Shown here in pieces: positions 1 to 12,524 of a stretch of 12,524 bases of DNA. Origin of the DNA: a virus; UHGV virus genome UHGV-0168749, one strand, 5' to 3'. Every line of letters starts with the position of its first letter. Positions within the stretch are counted from its first letter, which is position 1. A model generated the notes under the pieces. The model saw only the letters and a program-made list of their open reading frames with translations. It did not search any database and was not told the origin of the DNA. Made by a program: the position numbers and the translations under genes.

Positions 1-29
1 CGGCAGCGTCAGATGTGTATAAGAGACAG
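1..29. other. Illumina Nextera read-1 transposase adapter (Tn5 mosaic end), non-biological
   Basis: Positions 1-29 read CGGCAGCGTCAGATGTGTATAAGAGACAG, the 3' portion of the Nextera read-1 adapter ending in the 19-nt Tn5 mosaic end AGATGTGTATAAGAGACAG. Recognised from established knowledge of the adapter sequence. Confidence 0.9.
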
Positions 30-31
30 CG

Positions 32-3000
32 TCAGAACAGTATGCAACGTACGATAACAAAGGCGGTTATACGTACAACACTACAAAACGCCGTTTTGCC
101 GTTACGTACAAAACCACGACGTTAAATGACTACTCCCTGTCGATGAAATACCGTATTCCTGGTATTTTCCCGAACATGGGAAGCATTAACCCAAATGAAC
201 AAATCGATTGGATGTTGTGCTACGCGAATGGCGGTGCAAGTATCCTTCGTCTTCAATTAAAGCAGCGTAAAATCTCTTTGCGCCTGACCGTAGCGTTAGG
301 AAGCGGCTCAACCGATTACGACTATACGCTAATCAACGGACTGACCGACAGCGAATTGAAAGGTGAGTTAACGTTTAGTGTTGTTCGTCAGCCTGGTAAC
401 GGTGTGTATGTTATCGAGGTGACGACTAACAAACAGACGATGGACTACACGTTCAACGTTGATAACCCACCATCCGAATTCTCAGCAGGTTATAGCAAAA
501 CAGATGTTGCGAAATGGTTGAAATATAAAACCAACGTTAATCTAAACTGGTGGGCGGCTGAAAACGATTATGCACAATTCCTTGCGTTACCTGGTGCGCC
601 AGACGCCGACGTAAGCAATGACGTTTATCAGCTGATTGTCAAATACCATCAGTTGGTGGAACAGCTTTACCGCAACGCACCAGCTCACGAGCACGTTACC
701 CGTAAAGATAACCCACACGTCGATACGTGGGGACCGATTCGTGCGTTAGAGTTAAACGGTATCGCGTCAGATGCTGCTTTGGCTTACGGGAAAACGAAAC
801 AACAGTTAACGGATTACGTTAACAGTAAATACCCGACGCAGGCAACACTGACAGCGCAGAATAAACTGCTACGCACCGCAGCTAACAAAACGGTTGACGG
901 AACTATCAGAACACTGCCAGGCTTTACGTCCTTTACGACGGAAGTTGATCCGGTGTCGATGTCTAAGTACGTGAACCCTTATTTTAGCGAAAGCTATGTT
1001 AGCAATGGTTACACGTATCATGGCGCACTTCGTTATACGGGAACGAAGAATGGATTTGGTACTTATTTTAATGGAGTACCTGCCAACCTGCAAGATATTG
1101 ACTTCATTGTCACCGGACGTAAAACAGCGTCAGGTAATGAAGCAGTCGGTATGGTTGGTTTACGCTTCTATGAAAATCCTGGTAGTAACTCTGGCAAATT
1201 CATTCAACTTACCGGTGAAGTTCTGTCAGGTCGAGTCAGTATCGGTTTACAACTGAACGGTTATGCTAATCCGCAGCCGGAAGTCCAATATGTTTCTCAA
1301 ATCGCCGATCCTGCAATACCTGACGATGATTTTACGTTACGTTTCCAATTAAAACGTACGGGGAACGTATTTGATATCGTTGTTACCGTGAATGGTAAGA
1401 CGTACAGCGCTCGTGTCAACTTCGTTAACATGGATGCTGCGCTAGAAGCGTTAGAGAACCAACATCACTTTAAAACGTTGATTAACAACGTTGCTGATAG
1501 TGTCAGCATTATCTCGCAAAACAAAGGTAACACGGTTACCATTAAGAAAGCGCCGGATGTTGTTGACGAGACCCGTTTAGGTGCTCAGTTTGCCGTTGAC
1601 CCGAAATCCATTAAGTTTATTGGCCAAGGTTCAACCGAAGTTAATGCAGGGAATAACCCCGTAACTTTCCAGGCAGGGACTAATCAGCTGGTATTGTACG
1701 CTGACGATCGTGGCTTGCAGTGGCGTGGTAAGAAACTTTTAGACCCCACCACAGTAGGGCCTTACCTACCAGGTAATACCGCGGGTGGAACAGGATTATT
1801 CTACGCAAACTCGACAGCAACGGTAACCATTACAGGTAACGGAATAAAAGCGTCACCGTTTGTGGCAACGTTTGTCCTCCCTACCGCAACGGATACGACG
1901 TCCTTAGCCGGATGGCAGTTAACCGATGAGTTCGGTACTGCGGAAAATCTGGCAGCGACGCCTGCGTTGATTACAAAACTCGATGCTGAGTTTACGGGTA
2001 AATTGGTCGCGGTAAAATCGTACATTAACGACATGCCGTTAACCAGCTCTATTACCATCGACAAAATCACCTTTAACCTAGGTAACGTTGCAAACACACC
2101 TGACGTCGATTTACCTATTTCTGTTGCACAACAAACAGAGTTGGATAAATATTCACCGAAGGTTCACCGCCACCCGTCAACAGCGTTTGGAGTGGAAAAC
2201 GCAACAACGGATAAACGCGGGTTAATTAAATTCGGATTAGCCGTCGATGATGCAACGCTGGCTTTAGACGCTAGTGTGGTGATGGATCAGACAGCTCGAA
2301 TTGAGAAGCTGGAAGCAACAGTAGGTAACGTAGATTCGGGTGCCCGAATTGACATCATCCGTTACGGTGAAACTGGGAACGACTTAATCGAAGTTACGGT
2401 AAAAGACAAGATACTGGTTACGTTACCCGCCACAACGTATTTCATTGGTGGGGAAACGTATCAAGTGCCGTTAATGACAGTAAACACTGCTGAGCGCTTT
2501 CCAAAACTGAATACGGAAATTGTTGCTGGGGTGTTTGTTGATATTGTCGATAACCGGGCGACTTATGTTATTCACGATAGTTACAGTCAAGCCGAAACGG
2601 ATACCATGACCCGTGTGGGGATGATTGGCGTCAACGATATCTCAGAAGTGTACTTAACCGAGTTGCGTAACGTGACCCGTTTAGGTGATTTCCGGGAATT
2701 GTCAGAACATATTGCTAACGACAATGCGCATATTCAGAGAAGTGCGCCACGTGCAGCTCTAGGTTTGCGCAATTTAACAGTGGGTGCGCCCTGCTGGGCT
2801 TCAGGCTTACAAGCAGTAACACGTGGTGAGGCTGATTGGCGATTTGCGATGGGGAATACGTATAAAGCACTCGACGGCGTAAAATACGATTCCTTAGCTT
2901 CGAAGTGGATATTTGATCCAAAGGGAGTTAGTGATAATGTTCATGGATTTATTCACAATCTTTTCCCGCTGTTCTCGAACGCAGGTGTTCGTGTAACTTG

Positions 3001-3787
3001 GGAAACGGAGAGTAACGCAAAAACGGGCACAGTGCTTGAAACGATTTTAGGTTGTTGGCGGAATAATGCCAATGAGTTTGTTCGCTTGTCTCTTTTAGTG
3101 ACAAGGGGCTACCGCTTAACTGACAGTAAGGGCGAATATTGTTACGCAGGTTTCGGGTTAAACTTCGCTAATGGGAAATCGGTTGTTCTTGGTTTTACAC
3201 CAACGAAGCGTGTTACACCTGCCCCTTGGAGTACATTACAACCCGATATCACATTTACCCACAGACGCGGCGCGAACAACGATGTGACGTTTAATGCGAC
3301 GTTAACACTAGCAGGAACGGTTTATACCATCGTTGTGTATTTGTCAGATGTAGATAAATACGTAAGCTGCACCGCAGCGGGCGGAACAACTCAGAAAATT
3401 TCGTTAACTGATCGTCTAGGTGAGTTAGATATTTCACCCATTGTTAACGATCCTTATACCCCTATCTATTACGGTTTAGGGGGACTTTATGACGACGAGG
3501 TACGCGCCAACCTCCGTACCACTGCTGATAGCATAACAGCAAATAAATCGTACGGAACGCTATTGGATTATATCGCTAACTATTCTGCATTAAACCGCGC
3601 ACGCCTCATTGAGACAGCTGGCCCAAGCTCAGATCCTGAGACGCTAAACGCGCTGGTAGCAAAAGAGTTTGATGATAATTTAGCCGATTATAACGCGTTA
3701 CCGATCCCTCCTTATCTGAACAAGGAGCGTGTCATGTCGTTCTTGGGTGAAAACAATAAACTCAACGCGGTGATTATTCGCGATTAA
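32..3787 (+). CDS. Large phage tail-fibre-like structural protein, probably 5'-partial (the ORF track starts it at the internal Met at 143)
   Basis: The reading frame is open from the first native base after the adapter (the only upstream in-frame stop, TAA at 20-22, lies inside the adapter). No Shine-Dalgarno precedes the ATG at 143 (upstream is ctactccctgtcg). Stop TAA at 3785-3787. Composition is T/N/G/V/Y-rich and it contains the box DLPISVAQQTELDKYSPKVHRHP...ATTDKRGLIKFG (nt ~2102-2238) resembling the conserved tail-fibre K-P-x-S...H-x-H motif. The product call is by motif recall, not a search. Confidence 0.7.
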   Translation, partial: SEQYATYDNKGGYTYNTTKRRFAVTYKTTTLNDYSLSMKYRIPGIFPNMGSINPNEQIDWMLCYANGGASILRLQLKQRKISLRLTVALGSGSTDYDYTLINGLTDSELKGELTFSVVRQPGNGVYVIEVTTNKQTMDYTFNVDNPPSEFSAGYSKTDVAKWLKYKTNVNLNWWAAENDYAQFLALPGAPDADVSNDVYQLIVKYHQLVEQLYRNAPAHEHVTRKDNPHVDTWGPIRALELNGIASDAALAYGKTKQQLTDYVNSKYPTQATLTAQNKLLRTAANKTVDGTIRTLPGFTSFTTEVDPVSMSKYVNPYFSESYVSNGYTYHGALRYTGTKNGFGTYFNGVPANLQDIDFIVTGRKTASGNEAVGMVGLRFYENPGSNSGKFIQLTGEVLSGRVSIGLQLNGYANPQPEVQYVSQIADPAIPDDDFTLRFQLKRTGNVFDIVVTVNGKTYSARVNFVNMDAALEALENQHHFKTLINNVADSVSIISQNKGNTVTIKKAPDVVDETRLGAQFAVDPKSIKFIGQGSTEVNAGNNPVTFQAGTNQLVLYADDRGLQWRGKKLLDPTTVGPYLPGNTAGGTGLFYANSTATVTITGNGIKASPFVATFVLPTATDTTSLAGWQLTDEFGTAENLAATPALITKLDAEFTGKLVAVKSYINDMPLTSSITIDKITFNLGNVANTPDVDLPISVAQQTELDKYSPKVHRHPSTAFGVENATTDKRGLIKFGLAVDDATLALDASVVMDQTARIEKLEATVGNVDSGARIDIIRYGETGNDLIEVTVKDKILVTLPATTYFIGGETYQVPLMTVNTAERFPKLNTEIVAGVFVDIVDNRATYVIHDSYSQAETDTMTRVGMIGVNDISEVYLTELRNVTRLGDFRELSEHIANDNAHIQRSAPRAALGLRNLTVGAPCWASGLQAVTRGEADWRFAMGNTYKALDGVKYDSLASKWIFDPKGVSDNVHGFIHNLFPLFSNAGVRVTWETESNAKTGTVLETILGCWRNNANEFVRLSLLVTRGYRLTDSKGEYCYAGFGLNFANGKSVVLGFTPTKRVTPAPWSTLQPDITFTHRRGANNDVTFNATLTLAGTVYTIVVYLSDVDKYVSCTAAGGTTQKISLTDRLGELDISPIVNDPYTPIYYGLGGLYDDEVRANLRTTADSITANKSYGTLLDYIANYSALNRARLIETAGPSSDPETLNALVAKEFDDNLADYNALPIPPYLNKERVMSFLGENNKLNAVIIRD

Positions 3788-3791
3788 GGAG
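3786..3791 (+). promoter_or_regulatory. Shine-Dalgarno (AAGGAG) for ORF2, overlapping the ORF1 stop codon
   Basis: Sequence gatTAAGGAGaattttttgATG: the ORF1 TAA (3785-3787) overlaps AAGGAG (3786-3791); TTG at 3798 and ATG at 3801 follow at 6 and 9 nt spacing. Confidence 0.75.
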
Positions 3792-3797
3792 AATTTT

Positions 3798-6700
3798 TTG
3801 ATGAAAGCGTATCCTTACGATCCTCGGGGGACGAAAGCCGAGAATCACTTCTTAGAGGAGCGTATCATCGGGTCAGAAAACAACAACGATCGGGTGGTGA
3901 TTTTGGATCATCGCCCGTTCTTTGAAAATCTGGTCGTTAAGCAGCCGGGTTCAACTACCCCACTGAGCCGTGGGGTAGATTACGAACTGCAATATCAGCT
4001 GACGGAACTGGATGACTCGGTAGCAGCCAACGTGTATTGTGGGGTACACCTTATCAACCCATCCATCAAAGGTTTAGTTACTTTTGAAGGACAAATGCTC
4101 GGTGGAACGTTTTACGATCCGTTTGTAGAAATTCTGGATGAGCTTGTAAAACATCTCAATAACCCGACTAGTGCGGATTGGTTGTTATTAGAAGGTCGTC
4201 CGTCGCTTTATCCAGCAACACCTGCTGCAACGTCTTGGGCAGATTTGCTGAATAAAAAATATCTTGCGTCTGCGGTTCATGATATCGAATTAAAAACCGA
4301 TGATGCAAACCAACTGATTAAAGATAAACTGGCCGAGGTTAAAGCACTCGTTGTTGCTCTGGGTAAAGAAATTCAAGCATTTAATTACCCAGCACATATC
4401 GCGGCAAAGAATCCTCATGAAACAACCGTAGCACAAATCGAAGCTCATCCGGTGAATCTCAAAACGCCGGATACCTTTATGGCTTACGGTTTACGTCTGA
4501 AAGCGTTAACGGAAGAACTAAAAGCATTCCGTTTACCACAATCGGTAGTTGACACCTATATTTCTCATTGGATTTCTGATGAGGTCTATGGGAATTTCAA
4601 CTGTACGGTGTCAGGAAACCGTGCACAATTCAGTTCTAAAAATGGTGAATCTGAAATCATTTTTGCGAACGATGGTTTTACGTTGAAGTCAAACGGTTCA
4701 GTTGTGTTGGCGGTCGGGCACTTGGAAGGAACAGGTGCGGGTCGTTACATACAGTGGCGTGCAGGTAAGAACACGTTGCGTATTGAATCAACAGGCGATG
4801 CCTTAGGGATGAATAAACTCACCTTAAACGGCAACCCGTTGCTTACAACGACTGCACTAATGGAATACCAACAAGACCCTGACGAAGGGACAGGTGGTAA
4901 TGACCCTGATGACACTAAAGTGTATATCGAGGGTCGCAACGGAATTAGCTTTACGGGTAAAGGTTCACGCGCTGACCCTATCGTAGGGGTTATCGACCCT
5001 CAAAAAGCGACTCTGACTGAAAAAGGCGTCGCTAAACTGAAAACCGGTAAAGGAACGGAAACAACGGGCGTTGCAGCAACACCGGGGTCACTGACACCGT
5101 ACTCAACGGACTTGTCCGGGTATGTGCCGAAAACGACGCTGCTAAACGGTAAGGCGATGAACGACGGTTCTCGCCAGATTACCAAAGCAGAGTTAGGATT
5201 GGAACATGCTGACAATACCGCCGATGTTGATAAACCGCTGTCCTCGGCTCTAAGTACGGCAGTTGAAGGACTTGCGGAAAAGAACCACCATCACGAGTGG
5301 TCAGAATTAGGCATTTATAAGGCTTCTCAATCCATTTACGGTATAGGTCGTTATGCGACTAACCAAAATGGCTTAGTCGAGGGACGGGCTGTAGTGCCTA
5401 ATATTCTCAAAGAACTTTCTGCAAGGCTTGAAGTTGTTGCCGCAGCGATTGCAAATGCGAAAGAAGGTACGGTAACAGATTTTGCTGCGGTACAAGGTGC
5501 GCAGTGGCGGTTTAATAGTCAAGGTACTGCTTTAACCGTACAGGATCTGAAAGTCTTTTATTTGTTTGATGGTAACAAAGACGAAGCTACCCTGACCGGT
5601 GCAATTGATCTTCAGACAACGCCAATGTTCAACTGGTTTTCGCCAAATAACCAGCTTGAAACTACCTGGCCGGAAGCAAAAGTTAGCAAAGGAACAGGAA
5701 TTACTTGGGACGGTATTGATGAACCACCGTTAATGGGCTATCACTCTGTGCCTGTTGGAAAGACAGCAACACAAATGGGTGATCAGTCTGTAATTACTGT
5801 TCTTGCTAAAGCTCGGGTCAAAGCGTACCAGTCTAAGCTATGGGTTTATGCTGCCGGTGGTGGCCCCGTAACCGTGTACATTAACGGTGTGCAAGTTGCC
5901 TCCGGTGAATCGCCATTATTAACTGTTTACGAAACTTCACCAAACGTCGAGAACTATGTTGTTGCAATAAAAGCGGAATGTAGCGACACGGCAAAATCAG
6001 CTGCGGTGCAGTTTGAGATATATGACGGTGATTACCCTGTATATTTCAGTGGTCCCGAAACACACGTAGAGTTGTTAGCCGATTTCGTCACAACACATGT
6101 TGGGATTCGTCATTATCTTTACGTTAACATGCTCACAGGTTCTCTGTATTCTCGTGCTGAGCCGATCGAATCAAACCAGGTTGATCCTGAGCGCGGTTTT
6201 ATCGGATACGTAGATGTTTACGCAGGCGAAAATTACGCGAATAAGACGGTAACTTTCGACACCACTTTCGACTTTGGTACAAGTGCAGAAATTGGCAACC
6301 ATGTGACCACGCGAAACGCCCACGGGTTAAAAGTGGTCGACTGGTCGCTGACAGATAACCCCAGATTACCGTTATTGAACCGCGCTATTCCCGAACCACG
6401 TGCGTTGGTTTATCGTAAGATGCTAACGGCGGGAAGTGGCGGGACTGCTGTAAGCTTGAGTCGCGGTTTGCTTACTTATTCGCATGGGCTAAATGTTAAA
6501 ACTGCTTTACAGCTAATTTTCTCGACCGAAGGTGCAACGCCGTATTGTTGGTTTACACCATTCAACCCTAAAGAAAATAGTGCCCCCACATTCGAAGGGT
6601 CGTTTGTTTTTGATGTTGATGATGTTGGCGGGACAAAAGCACTCACAGCAGCTCCAGATCTTATACTCTGTGCTAGTTCACAAGGTAGTTCTGTAGGACG

Positions 6701-7988
6701 TCGATACGTTCGTTTTAATCTTACGGATAAGACCTGCAAAGTGGGTGTTGGTACGGTGCGTACTAATGAGACGTGGTACAAAACGTTTGAAACAAACGAT
6801 GGGGTGATGTTGATGGAAACAGCAAATGAGACCGCTGTTTCTGCAACTACCAAAGACGTGTTATTTAATGGCGATGAAACTAATCCAGCAATTCTTGACC
6901 TTTTAGGTTGGGGTGTAAGCAAGGATAAGATTTCTCCTGTTCACGCCCCAAGGGGAATGATACGTTACCGTTATAATGTTCAAACTCGTGTCTTACGATT
7001 AGCACTTTCTTTCTCGCAGTTTAACACAACAGCGGTTAAACAACGCCAAGTAGAGTTCCAACTTCCGTTTGATTTGGTAGATTATTTTGCTGGCGATGGC
7101 GTTGGGCTGGCGTTTAGTGAACTCAGCGAGAAGTGTCGTTTGACGATTAGCCATGGTTTAATAGACCCGGTTACATCTAATATTGACATTGATAAGTATC
7201 ATTACTTGCGTGGCTTGTTTGAATCGTACGTAGATAGTTCTATCGGTCAGCTTTCGGATGCTCGTGATGCCGATTATGCCCAGACCGCAATAGACCCCGC
7301 ATCGTACGAGATTAAATCTGAGTTCCGTTTTACCGAAGCAATAGGTTTACCTCTGGGACAAGGTGTTGCTTCTTTGTCGCATGAAGGTCAACTACCTGCG
7401 CAGTTCTACGATCGTAAGTTAGCTCGCGGTGCTTTGGTTTCTCAGAACTCTACGTGGAATAACGCGTGGAGTACCACGTCGCCTGCATCAGATAAACATC
7501 GTGGAAATTTGATCTTGCGATTCGCACAGGGCGTTAGTAAAGCACATTATCGCATCGCGCGTGTGTCGGGAACGATTAAAAGCAACTGGCCAGGGAAAGT
7601 GATTATCGGTGATGCACAGAAAGATGCTTTCTTATCTGCAACTGACATCGTCGAATTTGCTTTGTCGACATCTTCTGATGTGGGTAAAGCAATAAGCTTA
7701 ACTCCCGTGGATCTACGGGCAGGCCAAGACCTTTATATCGTCCTTGAGTTGCCGGGCGACAACCCAGAGGGGTATGAGTTGAACTTCAGCTGCAATTTAG
7801 AAATCTTTGATGAAACCAATACTCGTCAAGATCAACTGAACGTGCAAAGTTTTGAAGTTCGTTCCGGCGATGAACAAGTGATGATAACAAAGCGTAATCC
7901 GTACCATATCACGAGCAAAGCGTGGAAATGGATTTTAGCTGTACTGAAACGTGAACTTAACGGTAAACAGTTAGGGGATCGCACTTAG
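3798..7988 (+). CDS. Large phage tail-fibre-like protein (~1396 aa) with a canonical fibre repeat and a His-triplet box; start may be the ATG at 3801 rather than TTG at 3798
   Basis: Uninterrupted ORF with a strong RBS and TAG stop at 7986-7988. It contains QKATLTEKGVAKLKTGKGTETTGVAATPGSL (nt ~5001-5090), closely matching the tail-fibre repeat type A-T-x-x-x-K-G-V-x-x-L...A-A-T-P known from lambda Stf and T4 gp12/gp34, followed by LGLEHADNTADVDKPLSSALSTAVEGLAEKNHHHEW (nt ~5196-5300). The C-terminal ~700 aa look like a different, globular, Cys-containing module. Confidence 0.8.
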   Translation: MMKAYPYDPRGTKAENHFLEERIIGSENNNDRVVILDHRPFFENLVVKQPGSTTPLSRGVDYELQYQLTELDDSVAANVYCGVHLINPSIKGLVTFEGQMLGGTFYDPFVEILDELVKHLNNPTSADWLLLEGRPSLYPATPAATSWADLLNKKYLASAVHDIELKTDDANQLIKDKLAEVKALVVALGKEIQAFNYPAHIAAKNPHETTVAQIEAHPVNLKTPDTFMAYGLRLKALTEELKAFRLPQSVVDTYISHWISDEVYGNFNCTVSGNRAQFSSKNGESEIIFANDGFTLKSNGSVVLAVGHLEGTGAGRYIQWRAGKNTLRIESTGDALGMNKLTLNGNPLLTTTALMEYQQDPDEGTGGNDPDDTKVYIEGRNGISFTGKGSRADPIVGVIDPQKATLTEKGVAKLKTGKGTETTGVAATPGSLTPYSTDLSGYVPKTTLLNGKAMNDGSRQITKAELGLEHADNTADVDKPLSSALSTAVEGLAEKNHHHEWSELGIYKASQSIYGIGRYATNQNGLVEGRAVVPNILKELSARLEVVAAAIANAKEGTVTDFAAVQGAQWRFNSQGTALTVQDLKVFYLFDGNKDEATLTGAIDLQTTPMFNWFSPNNQLETTWPEAKVSKGTGITWDGIDEPPLMGYHSVPVGKTATQMGDQSVITVLAKARVKAYQSKLWVYAAGGGPVTVYINGVQVASGESPLLTVYETSPNVENYVVAIKAECSDTAKSAAVQFEIYDGDYPVYFSGPETHVELLADFVTTHVGIRHYLYVNMLTGSLYSRAEPIESNQVDPERGFIGYVDVYAGENYANKTVTFDTTFDFGTSAEIGNHVTTRNAHGLKVVDWSLTDNPRLPLLNRAIPEPRALVYRKMLTAGSGGTAVSLSRGLLTYSHGLNVKTALQLIFSTEGATPYCWFTPFNPKENSAPTFEGSFVFDVDDVGGTKALTAAPDLILCASSQGSSVGRRYVRFNLTDKTCKVGVGTVRTNETWYKTFETNDGVMLMETANETAVSATTKDVLFNGDETNPAILDLLGWGVSKDKISPVHAPRGMIRYRYNVQTRVLRLALSFSQFNTTAVKQRQVEFQLPFDLVDYFAGDGVGLAFSELSEKCRLTISHGLIDPVTSNIDIDKYHYLRGLFESYVDSSIGQLSDARDADYAQTAIDPASYEIKSEFRFTEAIGLPLGQGVASLSHEGQLPAQFYDRKLARGALVSQNSTWNNAWSTTSPASDKHRGNLILRFAQGVSKAHYRIARVSGTIKSNWPGKVIIGDAQKDAFLSATDIVEFALSTSSDVGKAISLTPVDLRAGQDLYIVLELPGDNPEGYELNFSCNLEIFDETNTRQDQLNVQSFEVRSGDEQVMITKRNPYHITSKAWKWILAVLKRELNGKQLGDRT

Positions 7989-8025
7989 GACAGACTGCCT
8001 GCGGGCAGTAATGTGTCCGTAGGTA

Positions 8026-8064
8026 ACCCCTCCCTGTAAAAAGGGAGGGGTATCCATTTTATTT
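8026..8064 (+). terminator. Putative rho-independent terminator between ORF2 and ORF3
   Basis: Perfect inverted repeat aCCCCTCCCT (8026-8035) / AGGGAGGGGt (8042-8051) with a 6-nt loop GTAAAA, followed by a T-rich tract (atccaTTTTATTT, to 8064). The U-tract is offset ~5 nt from the stem, so strength is uncertain. A smaller hairpin ACTGCC-tgcg-GGCAGT lies at 7994-8009, just after the ORF2 stop. Confidence 0.5.
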
Positions 8065-8070
8065 AAAAGT

Positions 8071-8075
8071 AGGAG
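8071..8075 (+). promoter_or_regulatory. Shine-Dalgarno (AGGAG) for ORF3
   Basis: gtAGGAGtctttacgATG: AGGAG at 8071-8075, 8 nt upstream of the ATG at 8084. Confidence 0.75.
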
Positions 8076-8083
8076 TCTTTACG

Positions 8084-11000
8084 ATGCCGAGAGAAGACGC
8101 GGCGCTGTTTAACGGTACGTTAAATACGTCAACGTACCCTAACCGATTTAACGTGGTCATCCCGCCGGAAGGCCCCTTTTATCGTATCGGATTAAAGCTC
8201 ACTGTTGCTGACGAGTCCGCCGCCGGTGGCCGTCGTACCTTAATAGAAGGTCTGGACTACTATTTAGGTTATTACTTTAAAGAGCTCGCTGAGGCAGAAC
8301 AAGACCAAATTTACGGCGGGTTCATGTTACTGACTGCCACTGAGGTGGAATACGAAATTCTGGGTGTAGCGCGCCAGTACCGTATCCCACAATCGGAAAT
8401 TGGCAAGTATCTAGTTCGTACCGATTTAAAAGATCCGCGTAACGTGGATTGGTCCGAATTAATGGCGTATGCTCCTGTCATACAGCCTATTGACCCGCCT
8501 GCTAACTTAGAAGAAGCCCTACTCAGGGACGAAGTAGTAAAAGCATTAGATGATATTCGTAAAAAGATTATCAAACGTTCCACTGAACTGGATGCTGCTT
8601 TTAGCGAAGTTACGAATCTGATTTACGAAAACGGTAAGAAGGTTTTTGACGAAGAGCTTTATCAGCACCATTTGAACCCTAATGTTCACAACTACACGAC
8701 TGAAGACATTGGTGCACTGCCTGTGTTGGGGCGTGCCGTAGATGCGACAAAAGCTTTCAACAGAACGTTAGATGAACTCGCAACGTTGATGGGTTCTGCG
8801 GGAATTGAGCAGTCGGACGTAGACCAGTTGATGGGCCGTACACTCGGCACGGTTTATGGTCGTTGGCGTGCTTCAAACGGTAAAGAACTGGCGTTCAAAA
8901 CCGCAGGCGGTCATGTAATCAGTATCCGAAATGATAAGTGGTTGATTACGTCACCACAACCATTAGTGATTAAAGCTGACCAGGACAACAATGAATCAGG
9001 CTTAGCCGTTGAGTTCAGCGCTGGGTTGAACACCCTTTGGGTACACTCTGGCTCCGAGCAAGATGTTTTAGCGCCAGTGTATAACTCCGTGTATCTGGTT
9101 ACACCAGACATGGTGAACATGTACTTAACATCGGTGACGTTGCTGGAAGCTAATGCGTACTTCTCGTCTTCAGACACAGTGAAAGCGTACGGTACATCGA
9201 AACAATCCAACCCATTGACGTTAAATGCAAATATCCCTACGGCGTCTGAGTCGGTTTACGGATTGTTCTCTATTACGAATATCGCAACATCAGCTGCGTT
9301 GGGTACAGCAATATCCCAAAAAGCCGTTACTGAATTAAAAGACCGGTTAGACTTGTACGTCGATGATGATTACACCATTAACGGTAAAGGATTTGTTAAG
9401 ACCGGTGAGAACATGGTATTGACGTTAACGAAAACGGATTTCGGCATCGATAAAATGGACAATACCAGTCCGGCTAACAAACCAGTAACAAAAGCACTGA
9501 CAAATGTTTTAAAGAACAAAGCATTGTCTAACCACACCCACGTGTTTGGCGATTTGGATAATGTACCGATCGGTAGTGCGACGGTAGACGGCTTATTACA
9601 GTTGTGGGATGCTATAGACACTACTAATGATAAAGCGGTCACTTCGCGTCAAGGGTGGTTATTTGCGAAAGAGATCAAGAAAGTTACTGACAAACTGAAC
9701 ACTATTTTACCGGCTTGGACCGTAGGTGGTGCGAAGTTTGGTAACAAAAACTTTCTACCAATTCCGGCACTTGGTAACTATTCAGGCTTTACAAAGAACC
9801 AGTCTTACCAAAAAGGGGTTGTTGGTTATCAGCAAGGGAAGGTCTACTCGCTACGTAATGCTTCTAATGGCGTGCCGGGTACAGAAGCTATTTATTACGG
9901 TTATGCGGATATCAACTCGTCAAATGCGTTTGAAAATCCACAACAGACCTCGGTGAAATACCATCCTGTTGGACTGAGTAAGTATCCTGGTGTAACTTTA
10001 AAAGCGATTTTGATTGGTGGTCAGGAAGCGATCATTTGCCTGGGCTCCGACAATAACCGGTATTTGGTGCTGTTTAACGGTTCGATGGACCACGCCAAAC
10101 ACACCGTGGTTTGTCGTGTGACGATGCCTGTCTATCGTAACGGTAACCCTAGCGGAACCGTTGAACAAACTTGGAATCCGTGGCCAGAAGCCGACGATGT
10201 TGTGCTGGTTGATGATTACGTCTATCTTCTCCGTTCTACGGTGAATAACTCTGCTTATGCAGTGGCGGCTTGGCGTTTGCGTAAAGCTGATTTGTATACC
10301 AGCACCACGTTAGAATTTGAACGCGTAACATTAACAGGCGAAATGGGTCAATACGGAGATAACCTCTGTTTACGAATCGGTCAAAAAACTGAGGAGTCTC
10401 AGTCTGGGCAGTTCTTTACGTATTTTACACCAGAAGCACGCGCTAAATGGACTAACGGACATAACTTTGTTCACGGGCCGGAATGCAACCATGCTTGCGC
10501 GGTGCGTGACAGCGTGATCCGCGTGAACCATATGCCCACGGTATGGTTTGCGGCGGCTGATGGCTCACAAATTAACTTTCGTCAATGGGCAACAAGTTTT
10601 ACGATCGATACGTTGACGGGCAAAGTTACGTTAGAAGGTGCCGAACGCTTCCCCATCAAGGCTGATGCTACTACACTCTCGTTCGCGGACGGTTCAACTG
10701 TAGAAACTAGTCGCAAGTGGGGTGGTGGTCAGGCAAACAATCGTTGTTTTGCAACGTTTGCAAAACCTAACGGTACGGGAATGATGCTTTCCTGCTGGCA
10801 AGTTAACGACGCAGACCAAATGCCGAACGTTTCTATTAAAGGAACGCAAGGCAAAGAGCTTTTCGATTATCTGCGTTACGATAACCCGAACAATACTTCA
10901 GGTGAAGGGACTTTTACATGGGATAAAGGACGCGGTTCTATTTATACCATCGGTCTTTCTCACCCTGTCGGTATTGGAGGCTCGAACAAAGTCTGGTTGT

Positions 11001-12475
11001 CTAATCCACGTAACCGTTACACAATCGAAGTTGAGGTTGACCCGAACACGCCGTACAATGTACCTGGTTACAGCGGATACGGTCCAAATAACAACCGTCG
11101 CGAGGTTGATCCTACACTTTACGAGCAGTTGAGCTGTATGGCTGCGTGTATGACGCCAGAGGAGCGCCACGGCCAACTTAACGGTTGGTATCTAACAAAA
11201 GCAGAGACTTTCCCATACCGGAATATCTACGGTAATTTTGCGTTGTCTTCAGAACGCTTGACGTTAGAAGAAGCTGATCGCCAGAAGATGATTCGAATGA
11301 TTGTCGATGGTGCGCCGTCAGGCGAAGCTAATGGCTATGCGAATGAACGTATTAGCGCAGCACACCAAACAGGCAATGCGTTATTTGCTCTTTGGATGTT
11401 GGGTATTAACACCGTGTGCGAGTTTGACTTATTACAAGTTTCGTGCATGAAAACCTTAGATAATGGGCGTCGTATTCTCGATATCTATTACTTCATGGTG
11501 AGCCCATCTAAAGAGAATGGTTATCTACGTTTTAACTCCGCAACCTTTAAGCTGGTCGACTGGTTCTTAGATAAGGACTACGGTTTAAGTTATCAGTCCT
11601 TGAATGAAGAAGCGGGTAATAAAACACGACGTGTGGGTCAGCCTATCTTTGCTTCTGCGGATGGTGTTAACTTCGGTATTTGGTTACCGTATACGTTGAC
11701 GATTCGGAATATCGGTGATTTGAACGCATTAGGCTACGCCGCGAAATATACTTACGACCCTGGGTCGGGTTGGACTCGTGTTCCTGGTAAGTCTCAGTTG
11801 CGTCAGATGGCTCCTGCCCATAACCCAGAATCCGGGTGTTACATGGGCGCGGGCAGTTGGGATAAGATGGCATTGATTTATTCCAAGGCTGACCGTGTAT
11901 TCTGCTCGGGTAATGCGTACACTGCCGCAGAGTTTGTTAACGACACAACATTCTCAACAGGCGGTCAAGCGGTCATTATTTCCGGTGTGGAAACGGCGGA
12001 AGGTTGGATTCTGTATTTAACGGAAGAAGTTAAATTGGATTTTGGTAGCAGTAGTTATACGCTTCCAACGTGGTCGGTAGATTTAAGTAATCAATTTCCA
12101 TCTAACCACGCCAATCAAACCTTCTACGTCCACGGCGAAGTTGTAGGCTCAACTGCACAGTATCAGATAGGTCTGGAGCAGCTTCCTGATAATGCGACTC
12201 GGCTGTTCGTTGGAACAGTCACAACGGACAGCAAACGTATCGTTGATATCAATATCGATAAGGTGAAACGTCTTGGTCGTGTTCGTGAACTGGAAGAACA
12301 TGCCGCTGTGGTTGATCAACACGACGTAGCGGCGGCGTTTGATCGAAAAACAGGACCACTACAGACGCTGGTTAACCAACCGTTGAAAGCTCCTGCGGCA
12401 TCTACGGTAAAAGGTTCTGGTTATGTTGATGCACAGAAGTGGAATTCACTTTCTGCGCTGGCATATAAGCCAGGT
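8084..12475 (+). CDS. Large phage tail-fibre-like protein, 3'-partial (at least 1464 native residues; reading frame runs into the adapter)
   Basis: ORF with a good RBS. It contains the box MDNTSPANKPVTKALTNVLKNKALSNHTHVFGD followed by GSATVDGLLQLWDAIDTTNDKAVTSRQGW (nt ~9455-9675), matching the tail-fibre motifs D-N-T-S-x-x-x-K-P-V-S/T...H-x-H and A-S/T-x-x-x-G-x-x-Q-L...A-A/V-T. No stop occurs before the adapter at 12476; the last ~16 residues of the 6-frame track translation (LSLIHISEPTRP...) are adapter-encoded. The C-terminal half is unusually Cys-rich. Confidence 0.8.
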
Positions 12476-12524
12476 CTGTCTCTTATACACATCTCCGAGC
12501 CCACGAGACCCTAAGACATCTCGT
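12476..12524. other. Illumina Nextera read-2 adapter (reverse complement) plus 8-nt index and start of the P7-side sequence, non-biological
   Basis: 12476-12509 read CTGTCTCTTATACACATCTCCGAGCCCACGAGAC (reverse complement of the Nextera read-2 adapter), followed by the 8-nt index CCTAAGAC and ATCTCGT, the start of the sequence that follows the index in Nextera libraries. Confidence 0.9.

Follow-up and report, generated by a model that had tools for sequence, protein, structure and literature searches.

Untrimmed Nextera adapters at both ends of the viral contig UHGV-0168749

The UHGV virus genome UHGV-0168749, a stretch of 12,524 nucleotides that was analysed over its full length (the window), holds three giant open reading frames (ORF1, ORF2 and ORF3), all on the plus strand and orthologous to the genes for gp170, gp169 and gp168 of phage SPN3US. 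The frames are bracketed by two short terminal segments, 1-29 and 12476-12524 (Table 1), and these are almost certainly untrimmed Illumina Nextera adapters, added by Tn5 tagmentation and retained in a low-coverage metagenome contig of the SPAdes kind. The record is identical in sequence to a contig of the ENA assembly ERZ1026973 (NODE_388_length_12524_cov_5.410137; L003), the name of which has the SPAdes form and gives a k-mer coverage of about 5.4x (5.41).

Adapter sequence at the two ends of the record

Positions 1-29 had been read in an earlier note, made from the sequence of this stretch alone, as a read-1 Nextera adapter, and 12476-12524 as the reverse complement of the read-2 adapter with an index; both identifications proved exact and their coordinates right. 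In a script comparison the left segment (CGGCAGCGTCAGATGTGTATAAGAGACAG) matched without exception the 29 nt at the 3' end of the 33-nt oligonucleotide Tn5ME-A, TCGTCGGCAGCGTCAGATGTGTATAAGAGACAG, and positions 12476-12509 (CTGTCTCTTATACACATCTCCGAGCCCACGAGAC) matched Tn5ME-B (34 nt), GTCTCGTGGGCTCGGAGATGTGTATAAGAGACAG, in reverse complement over its entire length, at 34/34 positions. Picelli et al., 2014 (PMC4248319) give the sequences of both oligonucleotides. Directly behind the adapter B complement stands an i7 sample barcode, CCTAAGAC, which is given as index N726 in Appendix B of PMC7589761, and in the N7xx primers of the same source ...ACGAGAT immediately precedes the index. The left end stops short of the first 4 nt of the A oligonucleotide and of the i5 index. 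The last 7 nt of the record, ATCTCGT, form the start of the P7 flow-cell complement, which we take to read ATCTCGTATGCCGTCTTCTGCTTG. An A match and a B match, a catalogued i7 index with P7 behind it, a terminal and outward position, and absence from a second assembly of the locus are the marks of Nextera contamination, and all of them are found here.

Table 1. Features of the window (positions of the whole stretch; L002 is the second public contig of the locus, ERZ28629076).
Feature	Position	Strand	Remarks
Adapter-A-specific part, CGGCAGCGTC (Tn5ME-A positions 5-14, Read 1 primer site)	1..10	+	exact match
19-nt Tn5 mosaic end, AGATGTGTATAAGAGACAG, transferred strand	11..29	+	3' G at 29 joined to target DNA at 30
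TAA within mosaic end, in frame with ORF1	20..22	+	closes the ORF upstream falsely; translation GSVRCV*ETASEQY...
Genuine phage DNA, 12,446 bp	30..12475	+	100% identical to L002
ORF1, 5'-truncated, residues 190-1440 of a 1440-aa SPN3US gp170 orthologue	32..3787	+	68% identity to SPN3US gp170 over N-terminal 494 aa, 44% over C-terminal 800 aa
ORF2, complete, 1395 aa, SPN3US gp169 orthologue	3801..7988	+	ATG 3801, 8 nt after AAGGAG; 47% identity to SPN3US gp169
Strong terminator-like hairpin, 10-bp stem with 7 GC pairs, then T-rich tail	8026..8051	+	between ORF2 and ORF3
ORF3, 3'-truncated, residues 1-1464 of a ~1727-aa SPN3US gp168 orthologue	8084..12475	+	54% identity to SPN3US gp168
Reverse complement of 19-nt mosaic end, CTGTCTCTTATACACATCT	12476..12494	+	
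Reverse complement of adapter-B-specific part, CCGAGCCCACGAGAC, Read 2 primer site	12495..12509	+	
i7 sample barcode, CCTAAGAC (N726)	12510..12517	+	barcode bases 3-5 are TAA, 12512-12514
ATCTCGT, first 7 nt of P7 flow-cell sequence complement	12518..12524	+	

Within the window there are exactly two copies of the 19-nt mosaic end, one at 11-29 (+) and one at 12476-12494 (-), and no internal copy was found even when up to 3 mismatches were allowed. Two matches compare with a chance expectation of 0.01 and were reached in 0/200 shuffles; an exact 29-mer at one end and an exact 49-mer at the other cannot be chance. This same mosaic end is the sole perfect end-proximal inverted repeat of the window, in which no terminal direct repeat was found, and the warning in the earlier note that any inference from the termini would be artefactual is borne out by it. 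The outer tips of both copies (...GAGACAG on the left, CTGTCTC... on the right) abut phage DNA, and the phage DNA is therefore the target that lay between two Tn5 strand-transfer events; it was not carried by a transposon. The contig boundaries had been called Tn5 tagmentation points; strictly, the boundaries sit inside the adapter, and the points of strand transfer are the adapter/insert junctions at 29/30 and 12475/12476.

Tails of this kind would arise if two short-insert read pairs had read through into adapter. Read 1 and Read 2 are assigned to the two ends by the standard Nextera library layout: the left end would be a Read 2, in reverse complement, that ran into adapter A, and the right end a Read 1 that continued through adapter B and the i7 index into P7. 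At the points where coverage of the genome ended, the adapter tails may have been the only extension left in the assembly graph and would have been kept as contig tips, and extension would then have been halted by adapter k-mers common to many reads.

Continuation of the genome past the junctions and rival readings

The same locus is present in a second public contig, L002 (ERZ28629076, scaffold_282, 17,315 bp). Window positions 30-12475 and L002 positions 4743-17188 form a single BLASTN alignment, gap-free and identical at 12446/12446 positions, and L002 departs from the window exactly at 29/30 and at 12475/12476. Past these junctions it has unrelated coding phage sequence (4,742 bp on the left, 127 bp on the right), and no mosaic end was found anywhere in it. 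Five jumbo-phage contigs of IMG/VR (107-225 kb; three measure 220-225 kb) are likewise colinear with the window, at ~74-77% nucleotide identity. Their alignments begin at window positions 30-32 and extend to ~12445-12455 in four cases and to 9720 in the fifth (L006, IMGVR_UViG_3300045988_113438), and none of the five enters the adapter regions. The earlier statement that the ends are not genome features is upheld both by L002 and by these alignments. The genomic sequence adjoining each junction had no exact match in IMG/VR, so that the window contig is not part of that collection.

Three points limit the adapter interpretation. The read-through and coverage-gap steps are inferred; only 29 nt of adapter A stand in the record, which leaves the i5 index unreadable; and L002, being 100% identical, may stem from the same or a related sample and is not necessarily independent as to the accuracy of the interior. 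A possible shared sample does not weaken the continuation of the genome through both junctions, which the homologues show likewise, and nothing contradicts the reading of the ends as adapter.

The layout of the record (A, insert, B complement, i7, P7) is also that of one amplifiable Nextera molecule, and the window might thus represent a single tagmentation fragment of 12.4 kb, captured by long reads or synthetic long reads. We regard this as very improbable. The SPAdes-style name with its k-mer coverage of 5.4 points to assembly from short reads; two ends that arose independently should show the A/B combination in half of all cases; the tails, at 29 and 49 nt, are shorter than the final k-mer usually is, which is what one would expect of tips in the graph; and IMG/VR contigs usually have the adapter at a single end. 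The reading as one long library molecule was rejected on these grounds, and the ends would be adapter either way. Just as improbable is a chimeric or misassembled contig with an untrustworthy interior. Adapter-mediated joins do occur, as in an IMG/VR contig with an internal adapter (L021, see below), but the interior of the window is free of mosaic ends, gap-free and 100% colinear with L002, and colinear at ~77% with the IMG/VR contigs (four of five to ~12450, L006 to 9720), and its gene order matches that of SPN3US, of the Salmonella phage SPAsTU and of the Erwinia phage pEa_SNUABM_29. A chimeric interior was therefore rejected.

Less probable again is that the window is a complete small linear molecule, or that the adapters mark physical termini of the phage. 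Adapters do stand at both ends with no further extension by the assembler, but a gene is interrupted at each junction (ORF1 at residue 190 of 1440, ORF3 at residue 1464 of ~1727), L002 extends 4.7 kb further on the left and 127 bp on the right, and the three genes lie well inside the 220-250-kb genomes of relatives. Genuine termini would be expected to show genomic terminal repeats and ends outside genes; the window has neither, and this reading was rejected as already refuted. The least credible of all is a natural Tn5/IS50-type transposon, or a 12.4-kb mobile element with terminal inverted repeats, which would share with the window a perfect 19-nt inverted repeat near both ends, but the sequence repeated here is that of the engineered hyperactive mosaic end and not what we take to be the wild-type outside or inside end, it carries Illumina primer tails, barcode and P7, its tips face inward onto phage DNA as target and not cargo, no transposase is encoded (there are only three structural genes in the window), and L002 has no such repeats at its identical locus, by which a natural element was already refuted. 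The mosaic end is described as a synthetic replacement, and what it has in common with natural ends is a 19-bp inverted end derived from IS50 (PMC4248319).

Effect on gene calls and on public collections

Two of the three genes are distorted by the adapters. ORF1 was called complete from an ATG at 143 because the in-frame TAA in the left adapter closes its frame, an effect absent from the earlier note; the public call (143..3787, 1214 aa) is presented as an ordinary gene, although its start is false and it falls 226 residues short. Once the adapter is trimmed off, the frame stays open right up to the edge and comprises 1251 codons, and the trimmed ORF1 is an exact suffix, from residue 190 onwards, of a 1440-aa gene of L002 that has an AGGAG-ATG start. 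Its first residue in the window aligns to residue 192 of gp263 of pEa_SNUABM_29 and, in the IMG/VR orthologue, to residue 190; orthologues measure 1440-1441 aa in IMG/VR, 1238 aa in pEa_SNUABM_29 and 1237 aa in SPN3US.

At the other end, codons 1465-1476 of ORF3 encode 12 adapter-derived residues, LSLIHISEPTRP, before the stop formed by barcode bases 3-5. The spurious C-terminal residues that had been noted for this frame are thus real as an effect, and the public call (8084..12514, 1476 aa) again stands as an ordinary gene. The 1464 residues that are genomic form the beginning of an ORF in L002, which runs on as ...KPGIPIQETYAGYK... Since the orthologues are 1727-1728 aa (IMG/VR), 1722 aa (pEa_SNUABM_29) and 1727 aa (SPN3US) long, ~263 C-terminal residues are missing from ORF3 of the window. 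Judged by these comparisons, the true lengths are 1440 aa for ORF1 (called 1214) and ~1727 aa for ORF3 (called 1476). Both should be flagged partial, and the protein entries of 1214 and 1476 aa should be discarded.

Adapter and vector sequence in assemblies is a class of contamination screened by NCBI VecScreen/UniVec and FCS-adaptor. The window resembles that class in having the exact Nextera oligonucleotide in terminal, outward position with a valid i7 index after it; what is particular to the window is that stops in the mosaic end and in the barcode make two partial genes look complete. When IMG/VR was scanned for exact copies of the adapter B complement (34 nt), at least 120 contig stretches (L011-L130) were returned, many of them from dataset 3300045988. 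Among the matches listed, 123 of 124 were terminal and pointed outward, and the adapter usually stood at one end of the contig only. The commonest 8-base strings behind it (e.g. CGTACTAG and GTAGAGGA) are presumably Nextera i7 indexes. Indexes checked against a source were the N7xx entries of PMC7589761 only. The sole internal copy among the 124 matches listed lies at 3701-3734 of L021 (IMGVR_UViG_3300010234_000504, 190,684 bp); the sequence directly behind it is not adapter and contains neither index nor P7, and this copy is probably an adapter-mediated chimeric join within a public 'viral genome'. Adapter contamination is widespread in the IMG/VR collection.

The adapter ends are an ordinary and well-known artefact of laboratory and assembly; they are no real feature of the genome, and there is nothing novel in the adapters themselves. 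The value of recognising them is practical, a matter of data hygiene with no bearing on phage biology. Left untrimmed, they have put two edge-truncated genes into public storage as 'complete' proteins and introduced, near the ends, a perfect 19-bp inverted repeat that could pass for a transposon or terminal-repeat signal; they also leak the library barcode and can seed false overlaps between unrelated contigs (one contig with an internal adapter join was seen in IMG/VR). Positions 1-29 and 12476-12524 should be trimmed and nothing, neither terminal repeats nor circularity, inferred from the ends of the record. The occurrence of the artefact in at least 120 IMG/VR contigs therefore warrants routine adapter screening of viral contigs derived from metagenomes.

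Phage genes between the adapters

The phage content of the window is unrelated to the adapter finding. By sequence comparison, the window comes from the interior of the genome of a jumbo phage that is SPN3US-like (Seoulvirus-related) and uncultured: it has orthologues of gp170, gp169 and gp168, and its nearest relatives are the uncultured IMG/VR contigs at ~77% nucleotide identity, three of which are 220-225 kb, and the source is therefore assigned to this group. The best cultured relative is the Erwinia phage pEa_SNUABM_29 (Seoulvirus, 248.8 kb), in which these three genes are present in identical order. A megablast of the window against cultured phages gave a single 518-bp match at 72% and no other. 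The three SPN3US proteins constitute 'paralog family C', low-abundance virion proteins detected by mass spectrometry that are absent from a tailless mutant, are similar to phiKZ gp131 and are viewed as candidates for baseplate or tail-fibre components (PMC5694885). Similarity of the window proteins to this family extends over the full length, and the locus has in common with that of SPN3US the order and orientation of the three genes as well as the neighbours, namely a divergent gene of 420 aa, a BhsA-like gene and a downstream gene of 401 aa. The proteins fall into the PHROGs families phrog_7557, phrog_8078 and phrog_7449, annotated as 'virion structural protein' or of unknown function; none of the three had a match in Pfam or relatives in a sequence search of the PDB.

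ORF1 and ORF2 are separated by only 13 nt. The TTG at 3798 is a mechanical start for ORF2, and ATG 3801 is the likely one; the version with the TTG start had no exact-protein match, and that from ATG 3801 matched the window contig and L002. The hairpin behind ORF2 is genuine phage sequence and is followed by AGGAG and then the ATG of ORF3. Scans of the window with Rfam and for tRNAs and tandem repeats found nothing.

ORF2 and ORF3 are weakly paralogous (24% identical over ~490 N-terminal residues). A short motif, ...DKMDNTSPANKPVTKAL...NHTH..., occurs in ORF3 at residues 443-500 (9410-9585) and in ORF2 at residues 439-491 (5115-5275) and matches the tail-fibre PHROGs phrog_35419 and phrog_5207, which fits a putative role in fibre or baseplate. 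ORF1 is ~200 aa longer than SPN3US gp170 through an internal insertion: the segment at residues ~305-512, counted from nt 32 (window ~945-1565), has no counterpart in gp263 of pEa_SNUABM_29 or in SPN3US gp170, and the IMG/VR relatives have the long form of the orthologue too.

The gp168 orthologue of L006 (14277-19460) is only 20-40% identical to its relatives over alignment columns ~550-1400, whereas the relatives are otherwise 85-95% identical and both ends of the L006 protein remain conserved. On sequence grounds this looks like a module swap in a tail-fibre candidate. The C-terminal ~230 residues of the gp168 orthologues are the least conserved with respect to SPN3US and pEa_SNUABM_29 (8-28%). 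The window ends at 12475 and L002 at 17315 (window coordinate 12602), 127 bp apart and both inside the gp168 orthologue, where its conservation starts falling; near window 12475 the assembly graph may break through a lack of coverage or through variation among strains. As a tentative and rather doubtful extension, the uncultured SPN3US-like lineage might be distinct at species or genus level with mosaic tail-fibre candidates (the ~200-aa insertion in the gp170 orthologue, middle or C-terminal modules of the gp168 orthologue swapped among relatives), and the breaks at 12475 and 127 bp later in L002 might come from strain-level variation in the C-terminal module that fragmented the graph.

Just upstream of the three giant genes lies a small gene similar to YdgH/BhsA, a stress-resistance family (L002 2587-2796; L009 2679-2888). 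This gene of bacterial type, set in a structural region of jumbo phages, is kept both in the phage described here and in SPAsTU.

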